Shown here piece by piece: positions 18,897 through 61,545 of a stretch of 64,000 nucleotides of DNA. The stretch is from a virus. The notes below the pieces were generated by a model, which ran no database searches, was not told where the DNA came from, and was given only the letters and a program-made list of their open reading frames with translations. The DNA lies in the IMG/VR virus record IMGVR_UViG_3300028597_000007. One strand, 5' to 3'. Both the position numbers and the translations under genes were made by a program. Position 1 is the first letter of the stretch, and the number at the start of each line of letters is the position of its first letter.

Positions 18897-18939
18897 GGGC
18901 CTTGCTAGATGTATTAGCAGGAATTATAAGGATCGCACG

Positions 18940-19224
18940 ATGCGAACACTGATCGTGGGAGGGTTTGGAATGGCTCTGGCGAGGGCGCTTTTGCGCGAGG
19001 TCGCCATGCCTGTGGTTGAGTGCGATGCCGTGAGCGGCGTCGACTTCGACTATGAGGCCGACTATGAGCCTGGTTCCAAGTTCTCCCGACCATGTGCGGG
19101 GCTGTGTCGACCGGTACCTGCGCGCCTTCAACCGTACCGCACTGTAAAGGACAGTGTATGGACAGCTGGGGTCGCGCACAGTCCGAGAAGACCTTTTGAA
19201 CTCAAGGGTGTAACGCCGGCATAG
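18940..19224 (+). CDS. small hypothetical protein abutting the putative ncRNA
   Basis: aagga RBS; its TAG stop lies inside the 5' closing strand of the element. Confidence 0.5.
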   Translation: MRTLIVGGFGMALARALLREVAMPVVECDAVSGVDFDYEADYEPGSKFSRPCAGLCRPVPARLQPYRTVKDSVWTAGVAHSPRRPFELKGVTPA

Positions 19225-19829
19225 CCCACTATCAAATCCGGCCCATAAGTGAAATAGGAGCATCCCACGAACTACTGGCTTTACTGGTTAGCATTGCTAA
19301 TCGGGTCAGTGGTCGCAATACCAGTTGTGCTCACGCGGAACACTACCGTTCTCTTGCCTTGGACCGTTGGGGTCGGGCTTGTGGAAACGTGTACCGGGTG
19401 TGCGAGGCTGGTATGGAAAAGTGTGTTGGCTGGGATTGGCAAATCGCCTAATCCAAACCTGAATACTTTCCAAGCGACTGCCTGACAAACTCACAGGCCG
19501 CATTGCCGAAAGCAGGGGGTTTAAATGGACCCCATTAAGAGACCTCCGGTTTTCTCTTGTATATCTGCACAGATGTTCTGCTCGTGTAGCCTTGGGTTAA
19601 ACTGAGTTCCCACGGACTCAGCCCTTGAGCGCACCCAGACCTAGGTAGTGACCCCCCGGCGGTACCCCCAGTCCAAGTAAGGCCAACACGTCCCCGTGGG
19701 GGATACGTGAAGAGCTGCTTCCTTGACTCTCTAGCACCACCAGCAGGCTGACGGCTGGTTGGTTTCACTGAGAGCTTGTGTGGCCTTGAGTCCGGTAGGG
19801 TACTCGTCGGGTACACGTTTACTTATGCC
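19218..19829 (+). ncRNA. large structured ncRNA with RNase P RNA-like topology
   Basis: no credible ORF over ~700 nt; 11-bp long-range helix 19385-95/19810-20; terminal stem ggcatag/ttatgcc; many local hairpins; blocks colinear with recalled rnpB motifs. Confidence 0.6.
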
Positions 19830-19853
19830 CTTGGCCCGTTTAAACCAAATCTC

Positions 19854-19875
19854 AGACCTGAATTATCACTCTGAA
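19854..19875 (+). promoter_or_regulatory. phage promoter-like motif ARAMCTRRAYYATY-N4-TGA
   Basis: agacctgaattatcactctgaa. Confidence 0.6.
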
Positions 19876-19933
19876 TGACCGTCAGTAATGATTGGTTTTT
19901 CTTATTGTCCAATACCTACAAGGAATTAGTTTC

Positions 19934-20422
19934 ATGACTGTACGTTCCATCGACGAGCATCTGAATAACACAGCGCTCGAACGCATCCGCACTACCTTCG
20001 ATGCCCTGGTGGAAAACATGGGGGTTGACATCGAAGCCCTGCAATCTGGAAGCCTGCCGTACTTCCACATCCCCGAAGACCTCATCAAGCCAAACATCGT
20101 CAAGCACGCTGAGGGCGAGCTTGCTTATGGCCTCGATGAGAATGGCATTGAGCACATCGCCGTGTTCAACGTCATGGGTTGGGCCATCTTTGGCCGTAAC
20201 GGTGAGTTCACCCTGCCTGACGGTGTGGCTGAACAGGACCCGCTGGACGTTGTAGCCATCGACGAGCGCTACGACTACTGGTACGATCTGCTGAGCGAAT
20301 ACGTTCGTGCAGTGGACATGCCAGACAAAATCGACGACCCCTACGACGACGAGATCAATGTCGAAGCGGGCTTCGGTGACGCCGACGAAGACGGCGAACC
20401 AATCGATCCTAACGACGAATAA
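19934..20422 (+). CDS. acidic hypothetical protein
   Basis: aggaa RBS, directly downstream of the motif. Confidence 0.7.
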   Translation: MTVRSIDEHLNNTALERIRTTFDALVENMGVDIEALQSGSLPYFHIPEDLIKPNIVKHAEGELAYGLDENGIEHIAVFNVMGWAIFGRNGEFTLPDGVAEQDPLDVVAIDERYDYWYDLLSEYVRAVDMPDKIDDPYDDEINVEAGFGDADEDGEPIDPNDE

Positions 20423-23852: not shown

Positions 23853-23920
23853 CCGCCTGCCTCCTCCCTACGGGGAGGAGGTTTATGGTCTAGGATTTTC
23901 TTTTGTTTCAACTGATTTAC

Positions 23921-23942
23921 AAACCTAAATTATCGACTTGAC
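23921..23942 (+). promoter_or_regulatory. phage promoter-like motif
   Basis: aaacctaaattatcgacttgac. Confidence 0.6.
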
Positions 23943-24427: not shown

Positions 24428-24514
24428 AGAGCCTTGGTTATGCGCACTTGTCCTGGTCGTAAGCCTGGGCATTTGCGGTCTATCAGTTATCTCCTTTCTC
24501 CACTAGGAATCGTC

Positions 24515-25885
24515 ATGAACAAATTGCAAGCAACCATCCGTAACCTGCTGGAAAACGGCGTGGAGCGCTCCGATCGTACTGGGGTCGGCACCCTGGCACA
24601 GTTCGGCCATATTGACCGCTGGGACCTCGAAGCAGGTCATCCACATGAGAATGCGAAGTTCACCCCGTTCAAGATCAACGTGGCTGAGTTGATCTGGATC
24701 ATCTCGGGCTCTACTCGCCTGAAGTTCCTCAAGGAACACAAGTGCCATGTGTGGGATGAATGGGTCAAGCCTGGCACTGAAGTGTGGGGACGTGAGTATA
24801 CCTACAAGGAGCGCCTGGAGATCTTCAAGCGTAAGTGCGAAGAAGGCAAGATCCAGAAAGAGGCCGTCGATCAGTACGTCGACATTTGGATGGAGATGCA
24901 TCCGAATGCGGTGATGGATGTTGAAGCCCATGAGCTGATGCTTGAGAACTTCAACATCCACACCCATGAACTACTCGACGGTGAACTGGGTCCTGTGTAC
25001 GGTCAGCAGTGGCGCAGCATCGTCGATACTCGTCGCGTTACCTTGAGTGAGGTTGAAGGCTACGTCAAACGCGGCTACCGCTTTGTCGGTGTACTGAAAG
25101 AGTCTGGCAACTCCCAGCACACTCCTGGACGTGGACGGCGTGGTCGAGGCCGCCGCATGATACGCACCGGTACTCGGATCAAGAGCAGTGCCAAGGTAGC
25201 CATCGTTGAGCGCAAGATCGATCAGCTGCAGAACGTCATCGACCAGCTCATCAACAAACCAGACGATCGCGGTATTATCGTCAACGCCTGGCATGTGCCT
25301 GATCTGGACCAGATGGCCCTGCGCCCTTGTCACACCCTGTTCCAGTTCGACACTGAGCGTCGTCCATGGGACGAGGTGCTGAGCGACATCACTGAGTCCG
25401 AACACTGGGACGAGTGGGATGAGCGCATTCAGGGCAAGTCCTCCCTCAAGAAAGAGGCGGAAGACTGGATCGAGGCCCGCAATGGCCGTGGGTTCCGTTC
25501 GCCGGACTTCTACGAATTCATCTACGAGTTTGCAGAGTCCAAACGTGTCCCCACTCGCAAACTGAGCTGCCTGCTCTACATGCGTTCGAACGACAGCTTC
25601 CTCGGGCGTCCATTCAACATCACCCAGTACGCTTTGCTGACCCGCATGGTGGCCCAGGTGGTGAACATGCATCCAGGCGAATTCGTTCTGGTCAACGGCA
25701 ACCTACACCTCTACAAGAACCACATCGAAGCGGCGAAGACCCTGCTGGAACAGAAGGGCGATCGTCCTCTGCCATGGGTCAACATCAACCCAGATGTCAA
25801 GCGTATCGAGGACTTCAAGGTTGAAGACTTCGAACTCATCAACTATGACCATGGGCCGAAGATCGGCGCACCGGTGGCAGTATGA
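24515..25885 (+). CDS. thyA: thymidylate synthase with insertions
   Basis: DRTGVGT, ELIWIISG, GPVYGQQWR, MALRPCH, YMRSND, PFNITQY, GNLHLYKNH. Confidence 0.95.
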   Translation: MNKLQATIRNLLENGVERSDRTGVGTLAQFGHIDRWDLEAGHPHENAKFTPFKINVAELIWIISGSTRLKFLKEHKCHVWDEWVKPGTEVWGREYTYKERLEIFKRKCEEGKIQKEAVDQYVDIWMEMHPNAVMDVEAHELMLENFNIHTHELLDGELGPVYGQQWRSIVDTRRVTLSEVEGYVKRGYRFVGVLKESGNSQHTPGRGRRGRGRRMIRTGTRIKSSAKVAIVERKIDQLQNVIDQLINKPDDRGIIVNAWHVPDLDQMALRPCHTLFQFDTERRPWDEVLSDITESEHWDEWDERIQGKSSLKKEAEDWIEARNGRGFRSPDFYEFIYEFAESKRVPTRKLSCLLYMRSNDSFLGRPFNITQYALLTRMVAQVVNMHPGEFVLVNGNLHLYKNHIEAAKTLLEQKGDRPLPWVNINPDVKRIEDFKVEDFELINYDHGPKIGAPVAV

Positions 25886-35989: not shown

Positions 35990-36815
35990 AGCCCAAAAGG
36001 ATTTCGTCCTTGTCCCGAACTACGACGACGGCAAGTATTTCCGTCTGACCGATGGCAACCACATCGTTGACGACCACGGTAATATCTTCATGAACAACGT
36101 GCGGATATTCCATCTCAATTACGAGAGTCCGTGGACCAACGTCTACTATCCGGCCAGCCCATCCGCGTTGGACGCGATCTACAGCTGGTGTAACCGCGGG
36201 GTAGACGGGCTCTTCTTCGCGGAGTACGGCAACCCACAATTACCAGAAGAGCACAGCGAGAAACTCAAGCGTCTGATGACGCTGGACGATAGTCGTTGTG
36301 TAGCGCGGTTCTCCAAGACCCGTGTGGTGAATGAGCTGAACGGACAGCATGTAGCCCCAGGTGCCTGGGTAGTGGCTGACGTTGTTTTCCCAGCACTCGC
36401 CCAGGGCAGTGACGGCTATCTCATCGCATACATGAAAGCGGGTGGTCCATTCCGATTCTCGCAGCGCTCCACTGCAGAAAGTCGGTACGGTTACGAGAGC
36501 AAGAGGCACATGCTCATCAACACCCTGGCCACGTTTGACATCATCACCAAGGAGATGGATGACAAGGACATCGCCGAAGAAGCTCGGATCAAGGCCGAGC
36601 GGGCAGAGCGCAATGAGCGCGAATCGGCTGAGTGCGGTGCCTCCGAGCTGATCGAGGAGCCGGCGGATGAGGCTGATCCCAACCCAAAGGCCGAACTGCA
36701 TCCGAAGACCCAGGCACTGATGCGTCGCGCGCTACCTGCCGGTTACGATGAGAAAGCTCCTTGCGATGTCGACACCAGCAAGGAAGCGTACCTCGAAAAG
36801 CCCGCCTCCGAATAA
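35982..36815 (+). CDS. hypothetical protein
   Basis: aggag RBS. Confidence 0.7.
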   Translation: MSEAQKDFVLVPNYDDGKYFRLTDGNHIVDDHGNIFMNNVRIFHLNYESPWTNVYYPASPSALDAIYSWCNRGVDGLFFAEYGNPQLPEEHSEKLKRLMTLDDSRCVARFSKTRVVNELNGQHVAPGAWVVADVVFPALAQGSDGYLIAYMKAGGPFRFSQRSTAESRYGYESKRHMLINTLATFDIITKEMDDKDIAEEARIKAERAERNERESAECGASELIEEPADEADPNPKAELHPKTQALMRRALPAGYDEKAPCDVDTSKEAYLEKPASE

Positions 36816-36824
36816 CCGAATCTG

Positions 36825-36846
36825 AAACCTAGATCATTGAAGTGAA
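36825..36846 (+). promoter_or_regulatory. phage promoter-like motif
   Basis: aaacctagatcattgaagtgaa. Confidence 0.55.
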
Positions 36847-40804: not shown

Positions 40805-40831
40805 TTTTTCTTTTTGTTTCAACCAATATTC

Positions 40832-40853
40832 AAACCTGAATTATCCCTTTGAA
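40832..40853 (+). promoter_or_regulatory. phage promoter-like motif
   Basis: aaacctgaattatccctttgaa. Confidence 0.6.
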
Positions 40854-61510: not shown

Positions 61511-61523
61511 ATAACCCGGACTG

Positions 61524-61545
61524 AAACCTAGACTATCCATGTGAA
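61524..61545 (+). promoter_or_regulatory. phage promoter-like motif
   Basis: aaacctagactatccatgtgaa. Confidence 0.6.

Follow-up and report, generated by a model that had tools for sequence, protein, structure and literature searches.

The 64,000-nt stretch of viral DNA analyzed here (the window) contains, upstream of a gene for a 162-aa protein (19934-20419), a long gap that raises the question of whether it specifies an RNA, a protein or both. A sequence-only reading had seen no credible ORF in the gap and had proposed that 19218-19829 encodes a large structured RNA with the ancestry and architecture of RNase P RNA. The window belongs to a 140,672-bp IMG/VR record with a CheckV completeness of 51%. 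A divergent family B DNA polymerase encoded in the record (PF20286, E 1.6e-207) is of the type typical of phiKZ-like jumbo phages, and the closest cultured phages (Burkholderia FLC9, Xanthomonas Xoo-sp14 and Pseudomonas PA1C-like) are only ~34% identical to it. The same DNA is contained in several soil metagenomes; in wastewater, sludge and bioreactor runs small shares of the sampled words of the record were present. Elsewhere in the window (24434-25885), an ORF of 483 aa for thymidylate synthase aligns with its Pfam model of 266 positions in two stretches apart from each other, which points to a large insertion or a fusion.

Syntenic copies of the locus were reached through the downstream 162-aa gene. 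Close loci were L004 and L006 from IMG/VR, L007-L012 from Logan and ENA and L013 from JGI; the distant loci L014/L015, L016, L017 and L018 were reached with a profile of the 162-aa protein. The phages that carry these loci are phiKZ-like, uncultured jumbo phages of soil and wastewater; they fall into about nine lineages and belong to a clade whose members are probably nucleus-forming. At every locus (L004, L006-L018) a gene-free gap of 460-1000 nt was found upstream of a homologous gene for 148-166 aa. No related loci were found with the upstream 168-aa protein, and cultured phages yielded no relatives when the locus or the L017 RNA was compared with them by blastn, or the downstream protein by tblastn. 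Contigs from four wastewater runs labelled as RNA, but possibly DNA, contain relatives of parts of the locus; such contigs say nothing about transcription, transcript ends or strand. A further unsampled lineage is represented by short contigs of the RNA-Seq-labelled wastewater libraries X20-X23, which match window positions 19474-19688 and carry substitutions and 1-nt indels in 19508-19622.

The pairings on which the RNase P proposal was built do occur in the window: GGCATAG/TTATGCC ('P1'), CTACCG/CGGTAG ('P2'), AAACGTGTACC/GGTACACGTTT ('P4') and TTGGCTGGG/CCCAGTCCAA ('P5/7') were all found at their positions, and a few short strings appear to resemble parts of E. coli rnpB. Covariance models gave no RNase P signal. 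Neither RNase P nor any other family was detected in the window with Rfam 15 at the gathering score or in 19000-20000 at E≤10, and the five distant homologous loci gave no RNase P and nothing relevant at E≤5. The sole Rfam matches were at chance level, far under the cut-offs, to unrelated eukaryotic or CRISPR models. RF00010 found nothing in the whole 140-kb record at E≤10, and the same model was positive in 11 of 14 control genomes. The P4-strand motifs CR-I and CR-V of E. coli M1 RNA had no match within three mismatches inside 19200-19850. ARAGORN detected no tRNA or tmRNA in the window, so that no substrate genes for RNase P lie nearby. Rfam 15 models of large and phage non-coding RNAs and of introns (GOLLD, ROOL, OLE, HEARO, group I/II, 6S) also gave no match. 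On these results every Rfam family was rejected as a match, including those of tmRNA, tRNA and introns.

A structured RNA is nevertheless present. The + strand of 19218-19829 folded with a z of -3.99, none of 20 shuffles being as good; the - strand gave -1.69. RNAalifold was applied to 19466-19845 aligned with its homologues (8 sequences) and produced a multi-branched consensus of at least ten helices. Standard pairs filled 95.3% of the cells of its 94 pairs, compared with 34-44% in slid controls, in which the partners were moved by 1-3 columns. Changes on both sides were observed for 24 pairs, compared with 0-4 in the controls. The + strand consensus had an energy of -65.5 kcal/mol, and that of the - strand -53.8 kcal/mol with 81 pairs. 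This weaker - strand consensus and the many conserved or invariant G-U pairs together favour the + strand, on which, like the RNA, all the genes and a promoter-like motif lie.

Only ~19486-19835 is truly non-coding. Coding potential in the 3' domain was rejected for either strand, since no ORF is kept across lineages; indels in the non-coding stretch measure 38, 29 and 5 nt, none of which is divisible by three. The non-coding domain shares 72-79% of its nucleotides with L004 and L009, compared with 68-72% for the flanking genes. Judged from this comparison of sequences, 19474-19835 is a structured + strand RNA of about 360 nt that belongs to a family not yet described. The proposal of a large structured RNA at this place was thus borne out: it is conserved, lies on the + strand and its helices covary among relatives.

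The first part of the domain is module A (19474-19573). It includes a hairpin at 19474-19501 with the loop ACAAACUCA, a hairpin at 19516-19533, a variable covarying hairpin and the conserved sequence UGUAUAUCUGCACAGA. The top of the 19516-19533 hairpin, GGUUUAAAUGGACC (14 nt, 19518-19531), is invariant in every lineage, and its lower stem covaries (GGGG/CCCC, GAGG/CCUC, ACGG/CCGU). The covariance model R1, made from module A alone (99 positions), matched each relative once: L007 at 1e-18, L016 at 4e-14, L017 at 2e-7, L018 at 2e-5 and L014 at 6e-5. No second copy of the RNA was found by covariance model or motif, R1 giving a single match in the window and in the 140-kb record.

The 19516-19533 hairpin also displays a G-rich stretch, a 5-nt spacer and an AUG (GGGGGUUUAAAUGG), as well as the heptamer UUUAAAU. 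A micro-ORF beginning at this AUG, read by eye and 15-32 codons long in all lineages, does not encode a conserved peptide: the nucleotides conserved downstream of the AUG fall in different frames, and most of the changes are non-synonymous.

Further downstream, the hairpin CUGAGUUC-CCAC-GGACUCAG (19602-19621) has 8 pairs, 93.8% paired, three of them changed on both sides. It is followed by module B (19654-19812), in which a long helix (~19654-19676/~19785-19812) surrounds two hairpins. This helix is the best-supported element of the domain, with 21 pairs that are 92-100% paired, 8 of them changed on both sides. Its sequence differs in every lineage, as between the window, L004, L007 and L016. 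The same long-helix module appeared in single-sequence folds of L007, L014, L016, L017 and L018 (z -2.2 to -4.5). Within module B an optional 38-nt hairpin (~19677-19714) is absent from L004, L008 and L007, and a variable hairpin at 19727-19774 is reduced to 6 bp in L012 and is short in L007.

The fold kept by the relatives is not that of RNase P. The 11-bp 'P4' helix (19385-19395/19810-19820) is perfect in this phage only, three of its 11 pairs being broken in 5-6 of the 8 sequences; in L012, whose neighbouring protein is 99% identical, all three mismatches fall in the 3' strand. The 5' strand lies inside a coding ORF (19267-19485, described below). 'P1' shows no covariation, three of its pairs have uncompensated mismatches, and two of its bases are shared with a covarying 5' hairpin. 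The 3' strands assigned to 'P2' and 'P5/7' pair with each other as the two strands of the covarying long helix. Taken together, the four helices are 81% paired in the 8-sequence alignment (76-93% each), compared with 95% for the alternative structure, and a compensatory change was seen in 6 of their 33 pairs. The rnpB-like blocks 'aaggccaa...gctgctt' are confined to the 38-nt hairpin missing from L004, L008 and L007, and the 'gagcgcacc' block is replaced in L004, L006 and L008. The regions taken to correspond to CR-II/CR-III of the specificity domain are not present in all members of the locus. An RNase P-derived RNA with equivalents of P1-P4, P5/7 and P15-18, possibly repurposed, is therefore a reading to which we attach a near-negligible probability, the more so since the covariance models that worked on the controls were silent here, the P4 strands could not be recognized and tRNA genes are missing from the window. 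The complementarity of 19385-19395 and 19810-19820 could reflect an alternative pairing or a lineage-specific change. The window version of 'P4', UACAC..UUUACUUAUGCC, is closer to the distant L014 and L017 than to near relatives.

The claim that the gap holds no credible ORF was wrong. Ordinary-start ORFs within 19225-19933 are short, and none was called in any relative, but the + strand frame 19267-19485 (72 codons and a TGA) is open and shows a synonymous excess. This frame is open in 9 of 9 close sequences with a length of 64-72 codons. For close pairs pN/pS was 0.07-0.23 in this frame and 0.8-2.8 in the other two, and the synonymous excess between L004 and L009 was significant (Fisher p = 4e-5). 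Between the window and more distant lineages, pN/pS was only 0.5-0.76. The product has a hydrophobic N-terminal segment (Kyte-Doolittle 17-residue maximum 2.0-2.5) and a conserved C-terminal WKSVLAGIGK. In L007, the most divergent of the close sequences, the frame is kept, and so is WKSVL.(A)IGK, whose codons carry synonymous changes at the third position. For the most distant lineages ORFs were chosen after the fact, and these are not clearly hydrophobic; hydrophobicity was seen in the window clade only.

No canonical start codon opens this frame in the present phage. A Shine-Dalgarno sequence AGGAG (19256-19260), invariant in the 9 close sequences, sits 6 nt 5' of an invariant ACG, which was counted as the first codon. 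The window shares no ATG, GTG or TTG with its near twin L012 before codon 13. In L014 an ATG comes right after the ACG, and a gene of 59 aa is called at the same place; L007 has ATC at the codon following the ACG, and the L004 group has TTG two codons later. No Pfam family, Hok/Gef and other toxins included, was matched at E≤0.1 by the products of the window, L004 and L007; a collection of 5.8 billion proteins contained no relative of the product, and the neighbouring small ORFs tested belonged to no Pfam or PHROG family. From its substitution pattern, 19267-19485 is a small-protein gene that had been overlooked, and the 5' third of the supposed non-coding RNA is thus coding. A -1 frameshift at the UUUAAAU of the invariant hairpin was rejected, because this heptamer comes 34 nt after the end of the small ORF and the frame in which it would be slippery has no start.

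The small ORF also contributes to conserved RNA helices. Folding the alignment of 19200-19845 with RNAalifold (8 sequences) gave 153 pairs, 93.4% paired; 39 of these have a compensatory change, compared with 3-9 in slid controls. Within the ORF, compensating changes in the second strand of helices are synonymous, as in CCAG/CUGG to CCAA/UUGG. A long-range helix joins GUCAGUGGUCGC (19305-19316) to 19474-19486; it spans the stop codon, encloses most of the ORF and is an alternative to the local hairpin 19474-19501. Its 12 pairs are 94.8% paired and two are changed on both sides. In front of the ORF, a 5' hairpin (19215-19242) with the stem GCCGG/CCGGC and an 18-nt loop containing the invariant CCCACUAUCAAA has 5 pairs, 100% paired, with two changed on both sides (GCCGA/UCGGC in L004/L008; GUCGG/CCGAC in L007). 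A weakly supported candidate for a closing helix would pair UCAAGGGUGUAA (19202-19213) with 19823-19834. It has 12 pairs, 89.6% paired, one compensatory change of A-U to G-C (in L007) and two mismatched pairs in L004/L008. With this helix included, we infer limits of about 19200-19835 for the whole folded unit. The 5' leader of the window folded alone gave a z of +1.17 and is not unusually stable, so that sequestration of the ribosome-binding site is weakly supported.

Upstream lies another small gene (18940-19224, + strand; 94 codons, with a signal-peptide-like N-terminus), which belongs to the context rather than to the RNA. In L009-L012 its position is taken by a called gene of 84-93 aa. 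A 1-nt indel near 19188 (GAGAAGA in the window, GATGAAGA in relatives) changes its last codons and stop; the nucleotides are conserved, and the ORF of the relatives ends at a TGA equivalent to ~19198-19200. Just 5' of its ribosome-binding site we observed a conserved hairpin, GCUA/CUGCUA - GAUGUAU - UAGC/UAGCAG, at 18900-18925 of the window and 2990-3015 of L004; L017 has it too.

A small hydrophobic ORF with a poor start, helices spanning it and a candidate 5'-3' closing helix are what could be expected of a type I toxin module similar to hok, in which the mRNA for a toxic small protein is kept inert by 5'-3' fold-back until it is processed and an antisense RNA serves as antidote. Against this, the product matched neither Hok/Gef nor another toxin family, and the ORFs of distant lineages are non-hydrophobic. 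A simple scan with the sigma-70 consensus, which does not cover phage promoters, revealed no antisense promoter. Known type I toxin mRNAs have much smaller 3' domains, and the setting is a lytic jumbo phage. We consider such a module improbable.

At the other end, the RNA finishes with the tail UUAUGCCCUUGG (19823-19834), of which UUAUGCC is invariant in close relatives and is kept as UUAUGC in distant ones. The partner of this tail is ambiguous: 19202-13, 19643-46 and the 19218-24 strand of 'P1' all qualify. Directly 3' of the RNA, the motif AACCNNNNNTCARACCTNNANTA...TGAAT (19843-19880) opens the next transcription unit, and it follows the RNA at the same place in all relatives. Five copies are found on the + strand of the window (19843-19865, 23910-23932, 36814-36836, 40821-40843 and 61513-61535), compared with 0.17 expected, each ~50-90 nt before a gene start; one more is located elsewhere in the record. 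Intrinsic terminators directly precede two copies (23910 and 40821). The motif is probably a promoter class of this phage; if it is read in this way, the RNA sits where a transcript ends.

The invariant GGTTTAAATGGACC (19518-31) is almost an exact inverted copy of GGCCCGTTTAAACC (19833-46), with which the promoter-like motif starts; if one G-U is included, 13 of the 14 positions are complementary. A read-through RNA might form this pairing, or the RNA hairpin may resemble the promoter box. A mobile element bounded by two TTTAAA boxes was rejected: the right box belongs to the promoter-like motif of other genes, and no empty site was found among relatives. The inverted copies, the second of which lies within the repeated motif, might also be taken as part of an element acting at the DNA level, for example an origin of replication, a packaging site or a regulatory region whose inverted repeats bind protein. 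We hold this to be very improbable. The many conserved G-U pairs and G-U intermediates would be mismatches in DNA and on the other strand, nested compensating helices over 150-350 nt are not expected of sites in duplex DNA, and no AT-rich or skew feature was found.

Two readings remain in which the product is an RNA of a new family, and the probabilities that we attach to all readings overlap and are not intended to sum to one. The one that accounts best for the data, and which we put at about an even chance, is a composite + strand unit at the end of a transcription unit: a small hydrophobic protein gene placed in and before the new RNA family, whose transcript would work mainly in cis. Owing to the helices spanning the ORF and to the lack of a good start codon, the membrane protein would be translated at a low level or only conditionally. 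The long 3' helix, with a U-rich tail behind it, would serve to terminate the transcript and to stabilise it, and the invariant hairpin is predicted to be the docking site of a phage factor that exerts this control. Several lines of evidence point to this composite unit. The same gap precedes the homologous gene in L004 and L006-L018; the frame has a coding signature, and L014 has a gene called with an ATG there. Helices covary in the 3' domain and in the whole unit, with the + strand favoured, and distant members with the same long-helix module were found by the covariance model. The promoter-like motif follows directly, with a terminator at the equivalent place of two other copies, and the non-coding domain is conserved as much as the flanking genes. 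Other observations fit the composite unit less well: the leader is not stable alone, the closing helix has just one compensatory change, and the evidence for the protein is limited in distant lineages by the higher pN/pS and by ORFs that were selected post hoc and are not clearly hydrophobic. Moreover, a terminator or stability element would not have to be as elaborate as this 360-nt domain with its invariant nucleotides in loops and at unpaired positions; this favours a trans-acting or protein-bound function.

This last point leads to the other reading, in which 19474-19835 would stand by itself as a non-coding RNA of a new class that acts in trans and could be an RNP scaffold, a decoy or a ribozyme. 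It would derive from the end of the small-ORF transcript by processing or by termination, with the small gene as a neighbour or, as in dual-function RNAs, as a second function of the same RNA. The size and complexity of the multi-branched domain, with its ten or more helices, speak for it, as does a hairpin top that is invariant over all nine lineages while its surroundings change. Peripheral hairpins are gained and lost in the modular fashion typical of large non-coding RNAs, and the domain is as conserved as protein genes. Against it, there is no evidence for a separate promoter, a processing site or abundance, the RNA is present in a single copy per genome with no known partner, and the 19305-16/19474-86 helix ties the ORF to the start of the domain. 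We regard a free-standing RNA as possible but on the unlikely side. With similar reserve we put forward its boldest form: a large RNA class specific to the phiKZ-like clade (~360 nt, or 630 nt with the coding 5' part) that would act in trans with GGUUUAAAUGGACC as its recognition element and double as the mRNA of a membrane protein.

It is rare for bacteria or phages to have large RNAs with complex conserved folds, and such RNAs have repeatedly proved to be ribozymes or RNP cores. The giant phages in which this RNA occurs build their own transcription machinery, and control at the RNA level is almost unexplored in them. The locus illustrates that what looks like non-coding RNA can conceal a small gene lacking a normal start codon and that one sequence can be under coding and structural constraints at once. 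Showing that the likeness to RNase P is only apparent also removes a much bolder claim.

Comparison with known systems places the unit as follows. Bacterial RNase P RNA (RF00010/RF00011) is of similar length and has many helices, one of them joining distant parts, and a few rnpB-like strings occur in the phage RNA. The latter, however, has no covariance match and no conserved P4 strands, its helix topology is different and its rnpB-like strings lie in a dispensable hairpin. With hok/sok of plasmid R1 the phage unit shares a small hydrophobic ORF within a highly folded mRNA, a possible 5'-3' fold-back and poor initiation signals. It differs in matching no sequence family, in showing no antisense promoter in the sigma-70 scan, in having a 3' structured domain of ~350 nt instead of tens of nucleotides and in belonging to a virulent jumbo phage. 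Staphylococcus aureus RNAIII/hld and SgrS/SgrT offer a parallel in organization, one transcript providing a small protein and a large conserved structured domain, which here lies 3' of the ORF; no homology of sequence or structure connects them with the phage RNA, for which evidence of trans base-pairing or targets is lacking. The Rfam models of OLE, GOLLD, ROOL, HEARO and raiA do not match the phage RNA, and its family, unlike these, is known from only some nine lineages of a single phage clade and shares sequence with a coding ORF. It resembles them in exceeding 300 nt and in its covarying helices, invariant loop nucleotides and variable peripheral hairpins; some large RNAs of this kind are carried by phages, and OLE functions together with a small membrane protein.
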